From a bacterium (GTDB lineage Bacteria; Zhuqueibacterota; Zhuqueibacteria; Residuimicrobiales; Krinioviventaceae): 64,000 nt of DNA. Shown one piece after another: positions 9,811-16,974 of this stretch (the first letter of the stretch is position 1; the number at the start of each line of letters is the position of its first letter). The stretch lies in NCBI GenBank assembly GCA_029561455.1, contig JAKQIY010000047.1, positions 332 through 64,331 on the forward strand. The letters are read 5' to 3'. The notes under the pieces are model-generated. The model was not told the DNA's origin and did no database searches. It was given only the letters and a program-made list of their open reading frames with translations. The translations under genes and the position numbers were made by a program.

Positions 9811-10845
9811 TCAATTTTTAAAAATTTTCCCAAACACCTCCAGAACCCGGTCAATATCCGCGTCGTTTATTTCCAGGTGAGTAACAAAGCGGATTTTTGT
9901 AGCGGAGAAATCCATGCACAATACGCCCTGCTCGCCTAACTTTTTACACAAGGTCTTAGCATCGACGCCGTAATCCTTAAAATCGGCAATGACGATGTTG
10001 GTGCGGGTTTCTTCAAGATTAATCGATACGCCTTGGACGGAATGCAGAAACGTAGCAATTCTAAAGGCGCGGGCGTGGTCGTCGGCCAGGCGTTGAATAT
10101 TATTTTCTACGGCATACAAGGCCGCAGCCGCCAGGATACCGGCCTGGCGCATGCCGCCACCCAGCATTTTGCGGACACGGTGCGCCTTGTTGACCAGTTC
10201 CATCGAACCGGCTATGGCCGAGCCCACCGGCGCGCCCAGCCCTTTGGAAAAACAAACGGACACGGAATCAAAGTATTGTGCATATTCGTGCAGGGGAATA
10301 CCGGTGGCGATATGCGCATTCCACAGGCGCGCGCCGTCCAGATGCATTTTCAAATCGTAAAAATCCACCAGCTGGCGGATTTCTTTAATAACCTCCAGGG
10401 GATAGATCGTACCCCCGGCGCGGTTATGAGTGTTTTCCAGTTCAATAAGCCGGGTTTGCGGATAATGGCTGTCCTTTGGGCGAATGACCGGCTTGATCTG
10501 CTGCGGGGTAATAATGCCATATACACCCGGCAGCGGGTGCAGTTGTACGCCGGACAGGAACGCCGGGGAGCCGCCTTCGTAATTGAAAATGTGACTGTTG
10601 ACATCGCAGATCACTTCATCGCCGGGGATAGTGTGGCACTTGATGGCGATTTGATTGGCCATAGTACCGCTGGGCACAAACAAAGCAGCTTCCTTACCCA
10701 GCAGCGCCGCTACTTTTTTCTGCAATTTATTGATTGTGGGATCTTCGCCGAACACATCATCGCCAACCTCGGCGTTAGCTATGGCCGCACGCATCGCCGG
10801 GGTGGGTTTGGTTATGGTGTCGCTGCGTAAATCTATTGTTTTCAT
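9811..10845 (-). CDS. ltaE: Low-specificity L-threonine aldolase
   Basis: The N-terminus '[22 protein letters not shown]...[10 protein letters not shown]' is characteristic. The fold is a PLP-dependent aminotransferase type. Confidence 0.8.
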
Positions 10846-11009: not shown

Positions 11010-14000
11010 TTAAAATAATGTTAACTGATCATCCTTTTTCTTTTTATATGTTTCCGTTTTCTCCCGGTTCAGCAGGCTGGCGGATATACCAGTCAGAAAA
11101 CGCGAAGGACTTTGGCTATGATGCTGCCCGAATAACAGCCGGCTTTTACAGTGAGTGAGATACAACTGCCGCTGTGCCCGCGTCATACCGACATACAGCA
11201 GCCTTTTTTCTTCCTCGATATCGGCAAGGCGGCCGGGCTGGCGATAAGGAATGATGGTTTCTTCGCAACCGGGTATAAACACCACCGGAAATTCGAGTCC
11301 CTTGGCGGCATGCAGGGTTAAAATATGCACTTTATCGGCGCGGTTGTCGAATTCATCGCTGGCGGCATGCAAAGCCAGGGCGTCGGTGAATTCCATCAGC
11401 CGATCGGCAAACGGCGCCGCCAGTTCCAGTAATTTACGTTTATCCTGCCGGTCGTCTTCAAGGTTGCCGGGAAAAAGCATAACCGTGAATTCCCAAATTT
11501 TTTCCAGATATTCGCAAACCGGCAAACCGGTTGGCAGGGATAGCAATATTGTCTGAAATACCTGGAATACCGGGTGGGGTTGTGGTTGTACAGCCGTTGT
11601 ATCTGTGTTTGTTTGAGTAAAACAAAGCGCCAATTCCCGGTATTGTATTGATTCTGCAAACGGATTTAGCATCCATCGTAAGGAAGCGGCAATAAACGCC
11701 ATACGCTCCTGGGCGGTGAGCCGGGAGTCGTCAAATGTTTCGAACGGAATGCCGGAGCGGGCAAGCGCTTCGACCAGGGGCGGAGCGAGACTGCGGGTGC
11801 GCAGCAGCACGGCTATATCGGCAAAGCTGTATGATTGCGGCAATCCGCGTTCGTCAACGCGATTGCTGTCCATTGAAAAAAAACTGACGCCGCCGATCAA
11901 CTGTTCGATAGTGTGAACGATATATTCCGCTTCGGCGCGGTCGGTTGGCGAGTTATGCAGGTTAACTTTGACCTCGGGAGCGATATTCGACCAGACCGCA
12001 TCAGCATCATTCCGTCCCGGACTATCCAGAATCTGCCGGGCTGCCAGAACAATATTTTGCGCCGAACGGTAATTACGGCGCAGTTTCATGGCAACGGCAT
12101 TGGGGAAATCGTTGGCGAACCGGTCAAAGTACTCCGGGCTGGCGCCCCTAAAGCCGTAAATCGCCTGATCCGGGTCGCCGATGACGCAGACATCCTGCGC
12201 TGCTACCGCCAGAATAACAAATAATTCATACTGAACGCGGTTAATATCCTGAAATTCATCCACCGCCAAAAATTGAGCGTTTTGCAACACCCGACGGCGC
12301 TGTTCGGGATCCTTACGTAACACCTGTAATGCCAGGCCGATCAGGTCGTCGTAATCCACACTGTTTGTATCTCTTAACAGCTGTTCATAGTTTTTATACA
12401 GAGTTTCAAATTGCTCCGGCAGGGTTTCTTTTATTTCTTTGGGAATGCCCTCCGGGTAATAGCCCTGACTTTTAAGCGCGGAAATAGTGTCCAGGGCGGA
12501 TTGAGTCAGCTTGAGGTTATAGTGCTCCTGAAATAATCTTTTGAAATAGGGGTCGTCAGTTGTATTTATAATTGTAAAATGCCTGGTGCGGCCAAAAAAG
12601 AAATCGGTTTGGCGTAGTATGTTGGCGCCCAGGGCGTGAAAGGTGGCGATATTGATTTGACCGGCGAGCTTTGCTCCAAGTTGGGCGAATAACCGGTCGC
12701 GCATTTCGCGGGCAGCTTTGTTGGTAAATGTAACTGCCAATACCTGTTGCGGTTGCGCCAGCCCGGAGGCGATCAATCCGGCAATACGTTGTGTGAGCGT
12801 GCGGGTTTTACCGGCGCCGGGTCCCGCCTGAATGATGAGCGGCGCGCCGTGATGCTGCACGGCGGCGAGTTGTTCAGCGTTCAGGCCATAATCAGCAGTT
12901 TTTTCTTGAACCATATTCACGACTACGCCGGCGGCAGGCTCCGCAACCGGCAGGGCCGTGTTATTTTTTTTAGCCGGTTTGGGGTTAACGGTGATACTCT
13001 CAAAGCCGAATAATTGTCCCTGCTGCAACAGGGTTTTGCGCTCATCCTCTTGAAAAATGTGAATAACGCCGTATTCGCCGTCATATCCCGGTATGGGCGA
13101 AACCTCGCCGGCCCGCATTCTGCGGATAGCTTCGGCCAGCAGCGAGCCCCCGGCGCTTTCCAGGTCGGACAGCGGCGTATCCATCAGGATCGTCAACTCC
13201 GGCCCCAACTCGCGCAACAGCATGGTGTACATGGTTTGTACGCTTTTCGAATTGGCGCCACTGGACTTGACTTCAGCGATCACTTCGGGTAAAGGAACAA
13301 GACTGGCAAAGTTTTTGGCATTGGCGGGTTTACCGCCTTCGGAACGATTGGCCAGTTCTTCCACACGGTAACTAACGCCCAGGGTAGAAGGCTTGCCGCA
13401 CACCGGGCACAGGCCTTTGTTTTGCATGGTCTCTTTGGGCAGGGTCATATAGCCGCACTTGCGATGCCCGTCGACATGGTACTTGCCTTCTTCGGGGAAA
13501 AATTCTATCGTGCCCCAAAAGTCGCTGCCGGTACGGTTTTTCAGGGCGGCGATCATGGCGTCGTAACCGATTTCGGTGTTAAACACATTCGCTTCGCGCG
13601 CCAGTTTGGCCGGGGAATGGGCGTCCGAGTTGGACACCAGGTTGTATTGATCGAGTATCGAGAGCCGCCAGTTCATAGGCGGATCGGAAGACAGCCCGGT
13701 TTCCAGGGCAAAAATGTGCTCCGACAGGTCGCCATAGCATTCCTGCACGCTGTCAAAACCGGATTTAGAGCCCAGTAACGAGAACCAGGGCGTCCAGATA
13801 TGCGCGGGAATGAGCACGGCGCGGGGATCGGAATCCAGTACCATTTCCAGCAGATCGCGGGAATCGAGTCCCAGTATCGGCCGGCCGTCGGAGCGGATAT
13901 TGCCGATACGTTCCAGCATTTGCTGGAATATGGCAACGGATTCGAGTGACGGGAACAGCACCACATTATGGACTTTGCGCACCTTGCCGTCTTTTTTATA

Positions 14001-14294
14001 GATATTGCTGATCTCGCCGGAGAGGATATAATAGACATCATTGGCGCAGGCGGTCGGAATTTCCCGCCGCATCGGCCCGGCATGGGTTTCTTTAAGCGTG
14101 TACAATCCCCCGGCGGCGCTTTCCTGTAATTTTTCCCGCATTTCTTCCAGCCAACGGGGATGGGTCAGGTCGCCGGTCGCCACAACCTGTAAGCCTTTGA
14201 GCTGCGCCCACTTGAACAGGTGTTCCAGGTTCAGGTCGGGACTGGTGGCGCGGGAGTAATGCGAATGAATGTGCAGATCGGCAATATAGCGCAT
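11010..14294 (-). CDS. PHP phosphoesterase domain fused to UvrD/PcrA-type SF1 helicase
   Basis: The N-terminus carries PHP motifs 'YIADLHIHSHYS' and 'NSDAHS', plus a CxxC element 'CPVCGKP'. From about residue 470 the Walker A 'AGPGAGKTRTLTQRIAGLI' and later UvrD motifs ('VDEFQD', 'LRRNYRS', 'LHAAKGLEFPVVFI') appear. Confidence 0.75.
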   Translation of the reverse strand: MRYIADLHIHSHYSRATSPDLNLEHLFKWAQLKGLQVVATGDLTHPRWLEEMREKLQESAAGGLYTLKETHAGPMRREIPTACANDVYYILSGEISNIYKKDGKVRKVHNVVLFPSLESVAIFQQMLERIGNIRSDGRPILGLDSRDLLEMVLDSDPRAVLIPAHIWTPWFSLLGSKSGFDSVQECYGDLSEHIFALETGLSSDPPMNWRLSILDQYNLVSNSDAHSPAKLAREANVFNTEIGYDAMIAALKNRTGSDFWGTIEFFPEEGKYHVDGHRKCGYMTLPKETMQNKGLCPVCGKPSTLGVSYRVEELANRSEGGKPANAKNFASLVPLPEVIAEVKSSGANSKSVQTMYTMLLRELGPELTILMDTPLSDLESAGGSLLAEAIRRMRAGEVSPIPGYDGEYGVIHIFQEDERKTLLQQGQLFGFESITVNPKPAKKNNTALPVAEPAAGVVVNMVQEKTADYGLNAEQLAAVQHHGAPLIIQAGPGAGKTRTLTQRIAGLIASGLAQPQQVLAVTFTNKAAREMRDRLFAQLGAKLAGQINIATFHALGANILRQTDFFFGRTRHFTIINTTDDPYFKRLFQEHYNLKLTQSALDTISALKSQGYYPEGIPKEIKETLPEQFETLYKNYEQLLRDTNSVDYDDLIGLALQVLRKDPEQRRRVLQNAQFLAVDEFQDINRVQYELFVILAVAAQDVCVIGDPDQAIYGFRGASPEYFDRFANDFPNAVAMKLRRNYRSAQNIVLAARQILDSPGRNDADAVWSNIAPEVKVNLHNSPTDRAEAEYIVHTIEQLIGGVSFFSMDSNRVDERGLPQSYSFADIAVLLRTRSLAPPLVEALARSGIPFETFDDSRLTAQERMAFIAASLRWMLNPFAESIQYRELALCFTQTNTDTTAVQPQPHPVFQVFQTILLSLPTGLPVCEYLEKIWEFTVMLFPGNLEDDRQDKRKLLELAAPFADRLMEFTDALALHAASDEFDNRADKVHILTLHAAKGLEFPVVFIPGCEETIIPYRQPGRLADIEEEKRLLYVGMTRAQRQLYLTHCKSRLLFGQHHSQSPSRFLTGISASLLNREKTETYKKKKDDQLTLF

Positions 14295-14569
14295 GATGCT
14301 CTTTGTTTTTTAGGGGATAAGATGAGTTAATTGCTTTAATATACTAGAAATCGTTGAGCATTCAAAATTGAAAAATTCTTGTGTGGAAAAGAGGGACTGT
14401 AATGTGTAGACATGATATTGGATTGAAGAGCGCCCTGTTGCAGGTTAATTTGATAGTAGAACATGCCAATTTAGACTGTAGCATTTATATAGTCAATTAT
14501 TATAAAGAATAGCTTGTTTTTCAGCAAGGCGCACTCGGTCATTATTTTGGGTTGCGACAGGTAAAGCCC

Positions 14570-16140
14570 GGAAACAGGGTGAATCTATACGAACGCGCCG
14601 GAAAAATAATTTTTTCGTAGGGCGAAGCGAACACAGCCGTCATCTCGATACGTTCTGAAAGATGAAGCAACGGGACTACTCAATGTCTATTATGCGTTTG
14701 TCATTCCAACGAGCGCAACAAGGAGAAAACATTAAGCTCATTGCCACGTCATTTATGACGTGGATTATAAAAACTAAACAAAATTGACTTTAGTCAAATA
14801 CTTGTTTAGGCTAAAGCCCTGTTTTTCCTTTATTTGTCCCACGACCTGAAGGTCGTGGCAATGATTGGGGCTTATTCACAAACCGGTCATCGAGTAGTCC
14901 GTCCCGCTTGGCGGGACGGACGTATCGAGACGACATTTCCTGGTCAGTATGCAACAAAATGGAGCCCCCCTCGTCGCACATACGGCACAAGCCTGGACAA
15001 GTTCGGAGTCAGAGTCTTGCCTTTATAGCAGTCCTGTGCCCCAGGTGGACCGCACTGATATTCTGCCGGGCCGCAGGCCCGACCTACAGAATAAACCCCG
15101 TCAGGAGTGTAATGCTATACGAACGCATCGGAAAAACAATTTTTTCGTGGGGCGAAGCGAACACAACCGTCATCTCGATACGTTCTGAAAGATGAAGCAA
15201 CGGGACTACTCAATGACTATTATGCGTTTGTCATTCCAACGAGCGCAACAAGGAGAAAACATTAAGCTCATTGCCACGTCATTTATGACGTGGATTATAA
15301 AAACTAAACAAAATTGACTTTAGTCAAATACTTGTTTAGGCTAAAGTCCTGTTTTTCCTTTATTTGTCCCACGATCTGAAGGTCGTGGCAATGATAGGGG
15401 CTTATTCACAAACCAGTCGTCGAGTAGTTCGTCCCGCTTGGCGGGACGGACGTATCGAGACGACATTTCCTGGTCAGTATGCAATAAAGTGTAGCCCACC
15501 TCGTCGCACATACTGCAAAAGTTTGATCAGGTTCGAATTCCTAGAATTTTCTTTATAGCAGACTCGTACCCCAGGTGGACCACACTGATATTCTGCCGGG
15601 CCGCAGGCCCGACCTACAGAATATACCCCGTCAGGGGTGTAATGCTATACGAACGCGCCGGAAAAATAATTTTTTCGTAGGGCGAAACGAACATAACCGT
15701 CATCTCGATACGTCCCGAAAGATAAAGCAACGGGACTACTCGATGACCATTATGCGCTTGTCATTCCAACGAGCGCAACAAGGAGAAAACATTAAGTTCA
15801 TTGCCACGTCATTTATGACGTGGATTATAAAAACTAAACAAAATTGACTTTAGTCAAATACTTGTTTAGGCTAAAGCCCTGTTTTTCCTTTATTTGTCCC
15901 ACGACCTGAAGGTCGTGGCAATGATAGGGGCTTATTCACAAACCGGTCGTCGAGTAGTCCATCCCGCTTGGCGGGACGGACGTATCGAGACGACATTTCC
16001 TGGTCAGTATGCAACAAAGTGGAGCCCCCCTCGTCGCACATCCAGCACAAGCCCGGTCAGGTTCGGAGTCATAGGGTTGTCTTTATGGCAGACTCATGCC
16101 CCAGGTGGACCACACTGAAACCTGCTGAGCTGCAAAACCG
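14570..16140. repeat. Tandem array of three 530-bp direct repeats (noncoding, highly structured)
   Basis: The marker 'ctatacgaacgc' recurs at 14585, 15115 and 15645. Identical spacing of 530 bp is seen between the artefactual ORFs at 14834, 15364 and 15894. Units are about 90-95% identical and each contains several perfect hairpins. Confidence 0.9.
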
Positions 16141-16197
16141 GCTAAAGCCGGGACTACAAACATGGCCGAAAGATGATGTTTACAATCCGAATAATGC

Positions 16198-16974
16198 TTA
16201 TATCTTGAATTTCAGGATCACCGGACAATGGTCGGAACCATATACGGCGGGTGTAATATAGCAGTCCGTTACCTGCGGCGCAAGTTCTGCGGACACAAAA
16301 AAATAGTCGATCCGCCAGCCGACATTTTTTGCGCGGGCGTTGGCCCAGTATGCCCACCAGGTATACTGCGCCGCTTCATCCGGATGAAAAAGCCGAAAAG
16401 CATCCACATACCCGTGGGCAATGAATTTATCGATCCAGGCGCGTTCTATAGGCAAAAAACCGGACTGATCGGCGTTGCTTTTGGGATTTTTCAGGTCGAT
16501 CTCGCGGTGGGCGGTATTGTAATCCCCGCAAATAACCAGCTTTTTGCCCTGACTGCGCAGGATTTGGCAATAATTTAGCGTGGCGTCGTAAAAAGCCAGT
16601 TTATAATCCAGCCGCTCCTGGCTTTGCTTACCGTTCGGGAAATAGATATTCAATAAAGTGAACTCTGGATAATCGAGCGCCAGGATCCGGCCTTCGGCGT
16701 CTTTGTTGTCCGCGCCAAACCCATAGCCGATGGTCACCGGCGGGGTTTTGACAAAACAGGCGACTCCGGAATATCCCGGTTTTTGCGCCTCGTTCCAATA
16801 AGAAGAATAGCCGTTTGCCAAATGTAACTCATCCCGTACCTGTTCATAATTTGCTTTGGTCTCCTGCAATGCTGCAATGTCCAGTATTTCCGTCGCCAGC
16901 CAATCGAAAAAGCCTTTTTTTACCACCGCGCGAAAACCGTTCACATTCCATGTCGCCAGTTTAATTTCGGGCAT
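16198..16974 (-). CDS. xthA: Exodeoxyribonuclease III (AP endonuclease)
   Basis: 'MPEIKLATWNVNGFRA' and the conserved ExoIII catalytic residues are present across 258 aa. Confidence 0.85.
   Translation of the reverse strand: MPEIKLATWNVNGFRAVVKKGFFDWLATEILDIAALQETKANYEQVRDELHLANGYSSYWNEAQKPGYSGVACFVKTPPVTIGYGFGADNKDAEGRILALDYPEFTLLNIYFPNGKQSQERLDYKLAFYDATLNYCQILRSQGKKLVICGDYNTAHREIDLKNPKSNADQSGFLPIERAWIDKFIAHGYVDAFRLFHPDEAAQYTWWAYWANARAKNVGWRIDYFFVSAELAPQVTDCYITPAVYGSDHCPVILKFKI

Follow-up and report, generated by a model that had tools for sequence, protein, structure and literature searches.

What is the function of a protein that begins as a metal-dependent PHP phosphoesterase and ends as a DNA helicase? 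This question is raised by a gene on contig JAKQIY010000047.1 of the bacterial assembly GCA_029561455.1 (Zhuqueibacterota), from which a stretch of 64,000 nucleotides (nt), denoted here as the window, was analyzed. An open reading frame (ORF) at 11010..14294 on the minus strand runs uninterrupted from an ATG start to a TAA stop and encodes 1094 amino acids (aa), in which an earlier note on this DNA had recognized PHP-superfamily motifs followed by a UvrD helicase. The two halves had been taken together as a helicase-nuclease similar in logic to AddA or RecB. The analysis described below points instead to an endonuclease Q (EndoQ) homologue joined to a helicase, and the most likely function of the fusion protein, a reading held with moderate confidence, would be clamp-tethered nick-and-unwind repair of deaminated bases.

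The fusion gene and its endonuclease Q module

All motifs quoted in the earlier note are present at their places in the translated ORF. The PHP half contains DLHIHSHYS (aa 6-14), NSDAHS (222-227) and CPVC (296-299), and the helicase half contains GPGAGKTRT (491-499), VDEFQD (678-683), LRRNYRS (738-744) and GLEFPVVF (999-1006). The two halves are connected by an interdomain linker (aa 430-468, 12891..13007, minus strand) that is disordered, rich in Lys, Pro and Ala, poorly conserved and of low column information. In an AlphaFold2 (AF2) model calculated from a 93-sequence alignment, with a mean predicted local distance difference test (pLDDT) value of 89 and a predicted TM score (pTM) of 0.76, the pLDDT drops below 50 for residues 427-468 (nt 12891-13016). 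Within the family, the spacing between a conserved GYDGEYG anchor and Walker A ranges from 53 to 213 aa.

The earlier note had pointed to this junction, at about 12.9-13.0 kb, as the place where a frameshift or misassembly might have united two separate genes. Separate EndoQ and helicase genes indeed exist in some relatives. However, the identical 1094-aa protein is called on ten contigs from at least two independent samples (a 580-kb contig of JGI 3300010355, evidently the source of the window, and the independent assembly ENA ERZ27257483), and more than 110 homologues with 45-88% identity are alignable across 100% of its length. Furthermore, 54 of 80 related loci in species genomes (see below) are fused, including complete genomes of cultured strains, and a conserved motif stays in frame within the linker. 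On the available sequence data, the probability of such an artefact is therefore negligible, and the claim of a single-polypeptide fusion stands, as one intact ORF that recurs in independent assemblies and full-length homologues.

The N-terminal module had been likened to the PHP proteins of the TIGR00375 type, described as uncharacterized. It corresponds in fact to EndoQ, which has been characterized since 2015 and for which crystal structures with and without DNA are available. In a phmmer search of residues 1-470 against the Protein Data Bank (PDB), EndoQ is the sole match, represented by PfuEndoQ (PDB code 5ZB8) and its DNA complexes (7K30-7K33), with an E-value of 4.5e-53. The alignment spans residues 5-416 of the fusion protein and chain residues 5-385 of the 400-residue crystallized construct, and the AF2 model superposes on 5ZB8 with a Foldseek TM score of 0.88-0.89 and a root mean square deviation (rmsd) of 2.7 Å. 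The three-domain architecture of EndoQ, known from PfuEndoQ (PF1551), TkoEndoQ, MacEndoQ and the enzymes of Bacillus pumilus and Bacillus subtilis, recurs in the fusion protein. On the minus strand, the PHP catalytic domain (aa 1-266, 13497..14294), assigned by phmmer comparison with PfuEndoQ, is followed by the probable Zn-binding domain (aa 267-331, 13302..13496) and by the C-terminal helical domain (aa 332-424, 13023..13301), which corresponds to Pfam PF27218 'MJ0043_C' and is found in all homologues. In both proteins a short clamp-docking-like peptide follows the helical domain. Compared with PfuEndoQ, the PHP domain of the fusion carries insertions of about 18 aa and 7 aa. In contrast to known EndoQ, the module described here is bacterial, is covalently linked to a 625-aa helicase and has a histidine as its putative first zinc ligand.

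EndoQ incises DNA at the phosphodiester bond directly 5′ to a hypoxanthine, uracil, xanthine or apurinic/apyrimidinic (AP) site, leaving a 3′-OH and a 5′-phosphate (PMC4357722). In PfuEndoQ, His8, His10, Glu76, His84, His139 and Asp193 coordinate the catalytic zinc ions and are required for activity according to mutagenesis (PMC5961232), while His139, Gly169 and Ser171 form a pocket that admits uracil and hypoxanthine and excludes thymine and adenine (PMC8307549). For 113 homologues that cover the whole fusion protein, the first 480 residues were aligned with PfuEndoQ. The metal ligands H8, H10, E94, H109, H165, D224 and H226 (Pfu H8, H10, E76, H84, H139, D193 and H195) and the lesion-pocket residues H165, W170, G200 and S202 (Pfu H139, the W144 loop, G169 and S171) are identical to those of EndoQ and invariant in 113 of the 113 homologues. 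A loss of PHP ligands, which the earlier note had named as the mark of a degenerate, non-catalytic domain, is thus not observed, and a degenerate domain is ruled out by the invariance of every metal ligand.

The putative zinc knuckle comprises H277, C280, C296 and C299 and is thus of the H-C-C-C type, as opposed to the C4 site of the archaeal enzymes (Pfu C249/C252/C268/C271). The His replaces the first Cys in all 113 homologues, and the knuckle residues are likewise invariant in the 93-sequence full-length alignment; the segment H277-C280 corresponds to window positions 13455-13466. The domain as a whole is present and aligned, and the H-C-C-C motif is probably still a zinc site. The NCBIfam model TIGR00375 matches residues 5-411 across its profile (2-374 of 374) with an E-value of 3.7e-46, with a score of 158.2 bits that lies under the curated cut-off of 326.6, and Pfam PHP and PHP_C match the N-terminus at sub-threshold scores only. 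The module is a divergent bacterial branch and not the archaeal equivalog. Stand-alone bacterial EndoQ proteins, those of B. pumilus and B. subtilis, are reported to be active (PMC5961232). By alignment and structural model, then, the N-terminal module is best described as a full-length EndoQ homologue with intact catalytic and pocket residues.

The helicase half and its association with endonuclease Q

Residues 469-1080 (11055..12890, minus strand) are assigned to a UvrD/PcrA-like helicase of superfamily 1A (SF1A) by Pfam, by alignment with PcrA, by motif conservation and by Foldseek. The Pfam UvrD-helicase domain covers residues 471-731 (E-value 1.7e-69, 235 bits) and UvrD_C scores 143 bits, both above their cut-offs, with UvrD_C/UvrD_C_2 extending to about residue 1050. 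In the 93 aligned sequences the Q-motif residue Q475, the Walker A motif GxGxGKT (491-497), D679, E680, Q682 and D683, the residues D707, P708 and Q710 of motif III (706-713), Y742 and R743 as well as T1038 and R1039 of motif VI are invariant or at least 90% conserved. The closest solved structure by sequence is Geobacillus PcrA (1PJR, residues 12-406 and 531-648, E-value 7.5e-83), followed by M. tuberculosis UvrD1, Rep and UvrD, and Foldseek comparison of the model with DNA-bound UvrD, PcrA and Rep yields TM scores of up to 0.80. The 1A/1B/2A/2B fold and all helicase motifs (Q-motif, Walker A, Ia, II, III, IV, V and VI with its arginine finger) are common to the fusion protein and UvrD, PcrA and Rep, and the description of this half in the earlier note as a complete UvrD/PcrA helicase agrees with the Pfam domains and the intact motifs. 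The scores against the NCBIfam equivalog models all fall under the respective cut-offs (PcrA 406 of 911 bits, Rep 355 of 951, UvrD 293 of 1144). By these comparisons the helicase half is a complete SF1A helicase that forms a distinct subfamily and is no orthologue of PcrA, UvrD or Rep. Its 2B region is about 40 aa shorter than that of PcrA. In place of the C-terminal extension of PcrA and UvrD there is a short basic tail that terminates in QLxLF, and the family members end a median of 57 aa beyond motif VI. UvrD is the classic helicase that unwinds from repair nicks in MutHLS mismatch repair and UvrABC excision repair. The nicking enzyme is present in cis in the fusion protein, whereas for UvrD it is recruited in trans. 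A second UvrD-like gene was looked for in the window and not found.

With both halves assigned, the helicase-nuclease proposal can be examined, namely a processive enzyme for the resection of DNA ends in the manner of AddA or RecB, with the PHP domain as 3′-5′ exonuclease. For the PHP domains of Pol III alpha and PolX an exonuclease or phosphoesterase activity is indeed established, the AddA and RecB models partly match the helicase core, and AddAB, AdnAB and RecBCD are among the distant structural matches. AddA, RecB and AdnB likewise combine an SF1A helicase and a nuclease in one polypeptide. Their nuclease, however, is a C-terminal PD-(D/E)xK domain that acts on single-stranded DNA leaving the motor at DNA ends, and a partner subunit is needed, whereas in the fusion described here a lesion-specific PHP endonuclease precedes the helicase on a flexible tether, and there is no partner gene. 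Pfam finds no PD-(D/E)xK domain, and no gene resembling AddB or RecC lies nearby. The AddA and RecB scores of 144 and 135 bits are far below the cut-offs of 708 and 696 bits and cover the helicase core only. Moreover, the EndoQ architecture is complete, with an invariant zinc domain, helical domain and base-recognition pocket, and the EndoQ literature covered reports lesion-specific endonuclease activity only. In PMC11354406, exonuclease activity of EndoQ is named among the keywords only, and the text describes none. DNA-end resection is therefore a very improbable function, and the analogy to AddA and RecB is weak compared with lesion-directed nicking coupled to unwinding.

In order to determine how widely the two halves occur together, the EndoQ module was searched against 1.84 billion representatives clustered at 50% identity, which yielded 3867 proteins with E-values of at most 1e-3, 2644 of at most 1e-10 and 1066 of at most 1e-30. 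The best 150 of these matches are nearly all 1000-1250 aa long and hence fused; the shorter ones among them are probably fragments. One genome per Genome Taxonomy Database (GTDB) species was also scanned with an alignment of EndoQ modules, PfuEndoQ among them, and relatives of the module turned up in at least 600 of these species-representative genomes. All locus analyses refer to the best 80 of these genome matches, which were classified by extension of the reading frame and by the location of helicase homology. Fused genes are found at 54 loci, five loci are cut by contig ends and 21 are unfused. At about ten of the unfused loci a UvrD-like gene follows 5-270 nt downstream on the same strand, at one it lies on the opposite strand at a distance of 2.6 kb, and about ten, mostly from Nitrospirota or Thermodesulfovibrionales, have no helicase within 6 kb. 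Relatives with the two genes side by side, as envisaged in the earlier note, thus exist. This Rosetta-stone pattern of fused, adjacent and solitary forms argues that the two activities work together. In a rough neighbor-joining tree of the EndoQ modules the unfused forms are interspersed among fused clades, which suggests several fission or fusion events in the family. Taken together, the sequences indicate that a nicking enzyme has repeatedly been joined in evolution to a dedicated UvrD-like helicase.

The 80 loci belong to Chloroflexota, KSB1, Fibrobacterota, Bacteroidota, Latescibacterota, Planctomycetota, Omnitrophota, Nitrospirota, Desulfobacterota, Myxococcota, Firmicutes (Clostridia and Negativicutes), Actinomycetota and Alphaproteobacteria. 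The Firmicutes with relatives of the EndoQ module include human-gut Lachnospiraceae and Oscillospiraceae. The cultured strains represented include Sorangium sp. So ce1078, Desulfonema magnum, Neomoorella stamsii, Mediterraneibacter hominis, Faecalicatena faecalis, Actinoallomurus soli, Propionispora sp., Neglectibacter timonensis and Micromonospora parastrephiae.

Two further observations concern the split loci. At three of them (L020, L027 and L038) the helicase homology continues in the same frame as EndoQ and is parted from it only by an in-frame stop; at L038 the tblastn match to the helicase begins 17 nt before the stop of the EndoQ ORF, again in the same frame. These stops could reflect sequencing errors, recent pseudogenization, genuine fission or stop-codon read-through. 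The separate helicases of four Omnitrophota/Planctomycetales loci (L020, L024, L029 and L030) are a minimal UvrD-like variant of about 480-510 aa, in which most of the region corresponding to residues ~387-505 of the query helicase (2B domain) is missing and which still terminates in Q[LM]xLF.

Clamp-binding-like peptides and proposed mode of action

Two short peptides stand out as conserved islands amid variable sequence of low pLDDT, and of all features they probably say most about the mechanism. The first putative clamp-binding motif (CBM1), QGQLF, comprises residues 425-429 (13008..13022, minus strand) in the context ...ERKTLLQQGQLFGF... and marks the start of the linker, at the position of the archaeal PCNA-interacting peptide (PIP) box. 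It has a fixed offset of 15 aa after the conserved GYDGEYG, with variable flanks and Lys/Pro/Ala-rich sequence behind it. At this offset, Gln is found in 194, Leu, Phe or Met in 225 and Phe or Leu in 203 of 237 sequences. The relaxed pattern Q-x-x-[LMFIV]-[FLIMWY] is present in 187 of the 237 proteins, as compared to 0-3 at fifteen control offsets deeper in the linker. QxxLF occurs at this site in 120 of 222 relatives and the strict form Q-phi-x-[LM]-[FL] in 43. Unfused EndoQ proteins, stand-alone and split, terminate exactly at this motif in 14 of 19 cases, e.g. with DQLALF, GQMTLF or GQARLF as their last residues.

The second motif (CBM2), QLTLF (aa 1090-1094, 11013..11027, minus strand), is a canonical Q-phi-x-L-F peptide at the extreme C-terminus, where it concludes a flexible basic tail of low pLDDT (aa 1081-1094, 11013..11054, minus strand); the chain ends ...KKKKDDQLTLF directly before the stop codon. 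Q1090, L1093 and F1094 are at least 90% conserved. The relaxed pattern Q..[LMFIV][FLIMWY] forms the exact C-terminus in 164 of 218 complete homologues and lies within the last nine residues in 32 more; the strict pattern Q-phi-x-[L/M]-[F/L] is terminal in 154 of 223 sequences and falls within the last ten residues in 182. QLKLF, QLSLF, QMSLF and QLDLF are the commonest terminal pentapeptides. At split loci the separate helicase ends in QMTLF, QLKLF, QMGLF or QVSMF.

The bacterial beta-clamp-binding motif has been described as QL[S/D]LF or, more generally, QxxLF (PMC12309361), and as Q-phi-x-[L/M][F/L], usually located in disordered regions or C-terminal tails (PMC11139829). Both peptides match these definitions, from which clamp binding itself is suggested. 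Archaeal EndoQ, with its PIP box QRTLLQYI in the equivalent C-terminal disordered region, binds PCNA with an apparent dissociation constant of 55 nM, and its cleavage is stimulated by PCNA (PMC5961232). The putative partner of the fusion protein would be the beta clamp (DnaN) in place of PCNA. MutL endonuclease with the beta clamp, archaeal EndoQ with PCNA and EndoMS/NucS with its clamp are likewise strand-incising nucleases with a clamp motif in a disordered region, but none of them is fused to a helicase. A dual motif, internal and C-terminal in one chain, on a UvrD-family helicase is not among the beta-clamp partners in the 2024 review PMC11139829, in which neither UvrD nor PcrA is mentioned, and a literature search pairing EndoQ with DnaN or the beta clamp returned no paper linking the two.

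The comparisons above establish the domain identities, the intact catalytic, lesion-pocket and helicase residues, the conserved fusion and gene adjacency, and the presence and conservation of the two motifs. Substrate specificity, clamp binding, loading of the helicase at the nick, the downstream steps and thereby the overall pathway are what we infer from these parts. The two motifs make the beta sliding clamp the putative working platform or delivery vehicle of the enzyme; the clamp would recruit the protein or hold it on DNA via the junction and C-terminal peptides; the two motifs of one polypeptide might occupy both clefts of the dimeric clamp or act sequentially. The EndoQ module would flip out deoxyuridine (dU), deoxyinosine (dI), deoxyxanthosine (dX) or an AP site and nick immediately 5′ of it, leaving a 3′-OH and a lesion-bearing 5′-phosphate. 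The tethered helicase would enter at the nick, translocate 3′-5′ on the intact strand and peel off the lesion-bearing 5′ strand, and it might push the product-bound EndoQ module aside as well. Repair would then be finished by a 5′ flap nuclease or exonuclease, by a polymerase, possibly on the same clamp, and by a ligase. Strand removal by a helicase after incision already features in a pathway drawn by the discoverers of EndoQ (PMC4357722, Fig. 10 legend), and nicks are sites at which the beta clamp can be loaded (bioRxiv 10.64898/2026.01.17.700081).

Several points weigh against this reading. Clamp binding is deduced from the peptide sequences, the motif counts derive from related sequences and not from independent events, and CBM1 of the window has a Gly at its second position, so that its binding could be weak or its role a different one. 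Loading of the helicase on the intact strand, and with it the removal of the lesion strand, is assumed. The H-C-C-C knuckle departs from C4, and the sub-cut-off TIGR00375 score together with an identity of about 32-36% to PfuEndoQ means that the substrate range could differ. The literature searched contains no biochemistry for any fused member.

The helicase could alternatively serve a repair enzyme as a motor for lesion scanning, obstacle clearing or release of the EndoQ product instead of excising the damaged strand, an option that is considered unlikely. PcrA and UvrD clear RNA polymerase or RecA from DNA, and the helicase half is nearest to these two. The motor of the fusion protein might do likewise, or it might strip the tightly product-bound EndoQ module from the nick, allowing turnover and hand-off to Pol I. 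PfuEndoQ remains bound to its nicked product (PMC5961232), which makes a release or turnover factor plausible. The long flexible linker would let the modules act on different DNA segments, and the approximately ten of 80 loci with EndoQ and no nearby helicase imply that nicking alone can suffice, with general enzymes processing the product. Against this reading stands the missing C-terminal region of PcrA and UvrD, in place of which the protein ends in a clamp-like motif, and the repeated fusion or adjacency to a nick-maker fits unwinding from the nick most simply. Clamp-tethered nicking and unwinding is thus preferred. As a bolder extension, put forward tentatively and with slightly less than even confidence, the fused form and not the Bacillus-type stand-alone enzyme may be the main bacterial EndoQ, which would dock on the clamp dimer with both motifs, nick 5′ of the lesion and carry out its own unwinding, and which would thereby define a widespread excision-repair pathway for deaminated bases within a single polypeptide.

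Genomic neighborhood and significance

Downstream of the fusion gene and on the same strand lies a gene for a pyridoxal phosphate-dependent threonine aldolase-like protein (9811-10845, minus strand), beyond which Trk potassium-uptake genes and then a two-component system are found. Upstream, likewise on the same strand and at a distance of about 1.9 kb, is xth (exodeoxyribonuclease III, 16198-16974, minus strand), identified by TIGR00633 with 311 bits against a cut-off of 99; a non-coding stretch with repeats separates the two genes. The earlier note had described the fusion gene as flanked by xth and a repeat array. The xth gene is genuine and lies upstream beyond the repeat, but the other flank is the aldolase-like gene, and the adjacency of xth is not conserved: it occurs within 6 kb in one of the 80 loci (L079) and is absent from the locus of a 60%-identical relative (L001). 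Both xth and EndoQ act by cutting on the 5′ side of a lesion or AP site, which makes their pairing suggestive, although it is not conserved. The order in L001 is PdxJ, polysaccharide deacetylase, ..., fusion gene, aldolase and Trk, with FxsA in place of the xth gene and repeats of the window. When the ORFs around the 80 loci were clustered, every neighbor family was confined to 12 loci or fewer, and the larger families stem from lineages that are related to one another. Scans of the locus for promoters and terminators gave results no better than those of shuffled sequence. The gene stands alone, with no sign of an operon partner or a defense island.

This context is relevant to a possible role in defense, in which EndoQ would nick phage or other foreign DNA containing uracil or non-canonical bases and the helicase would aid its destruction, similar to Gabija (GajB) or Nhi. 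According to a review, bacterial EndoQ may have an antiviral role, and B. subtilis EndoQ is not blocked by the Ugi protein of phage PBS1 (PMC8307549). PADLOC models for GajB match the helicase half with up to 295 bits. However, this lies under the 406 bits of the PcrA model and reflects generic helicase homology, no PADLOC model matches the EndoQ half, and neither GajA (OLD-family ATPase/Toprim) nor another defense partner is found next to the fusion gene. The neighbors are housekeeping genes (threonine aldolase-like, Trk, PdxJ) that are syntenic in the 60%-identical relative, no neighbor is conserved in the 80 loci, and the two clamp-like motifs point to chromosome maintenance. A defense function is accordingly improbable, and the search for a defense-island context proposed in the earlier note yields none; a conserved operon or defense island is rejected on the basis of the 80-locus clustering, of xth occurring in only one of the 80 loci and of the generic nature of the GajB matches.

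The intergenic region between the fusion gene and xth contains a tandem repeat (14562-16151) of three head-to-tail 530-nt units that are about 95% identical. Each unit is predicted to form a very stable fold on either strand, with minimum free energies of -176 and -183 kcal/mol and z-scores of about -6.4 and -6.3 relative to shuffles, and the predicted structure combines a long-range closing helix with several hairpins. Variation among the units is greatest in their last third. The array recurs in an independent assembly (L003, 1038 of 1041 positions identical) and is absent at the syntenic site of L001. Tandem Repeats Finder reported nothing for the repeat array, Rfam found no family at the gathering threshold in the 64 kb, with only sub-threshold matches of the repeat to psRNA14 (31 versus 60 bits), and exact-pattern scans of metagenome and viral collections for the 530-nt repeat returned nothing. 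On the basis of the Tandem Repeats Finder and Rfam results, a CRISPR array or a known RNA is ruled out; a structured non-coding RNA in tandem copies and an element of the satellite type are both conceivable. The GC content of the window is uneven, with fractions of 0.36 at 32-34 kb, 0.39-0.41 at 4-10 kb and 0.51-0.54 at 10-14 kb. Among the called genes of the source contig (locus L002), two sets of Trk potassium-uptake genes (TrkA/TrkH) lie within about 9 kb of each other in the window.

The architecture as such is already catalogued, since the sequence (HPG42109.1/HPN44207.1, labelled 'UvrD-helicase domain-containing protein [bacterium]') and its relatives are public under a generic helicase name. 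In the literature searched on EndoQ, on helicase-linked forms of it and on TIGR00375, the fusion is nowhere described. According to PMC5961232, EndoQ proteins have been divided 'based on the domain organization' into three families, of which two are bacterial. As the Desulfovibrionaceae loci of this study (L054 and L071) are helicase-linked, the long form has likely at least been noticed by the EndoQ group. What appears to be new is the EndoQ identity of the PHP module, the breadth of the fused family, its pattern of fused, split and solitary forms, the probable H-C-C-C zinc site and, above all, the two conserved clamp-binding-like peptides, the position of which mirrors the archaeal PIP box.

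The fusion points to what probably follows EndoQ incision, an unwinding that starts at the nick, and to the beta clamp as the probable platform. A single purified protein makes these post-incision steps of EndoQ repair directly testable. Functional clamp motifs would mean that a helicase and a new class of nuclease join the bacterial clamp clients, and the protein would provide a compact model for coupled incision, strand removal and resynthesis. Should the more tentative proposal hold as well, with the fused form as the main bacterial EndoQ, it would give PCNA-coupled EndoQ repair a counterpart in bacteria and be the first helicase of the UvrD family that is a direct clamp client.

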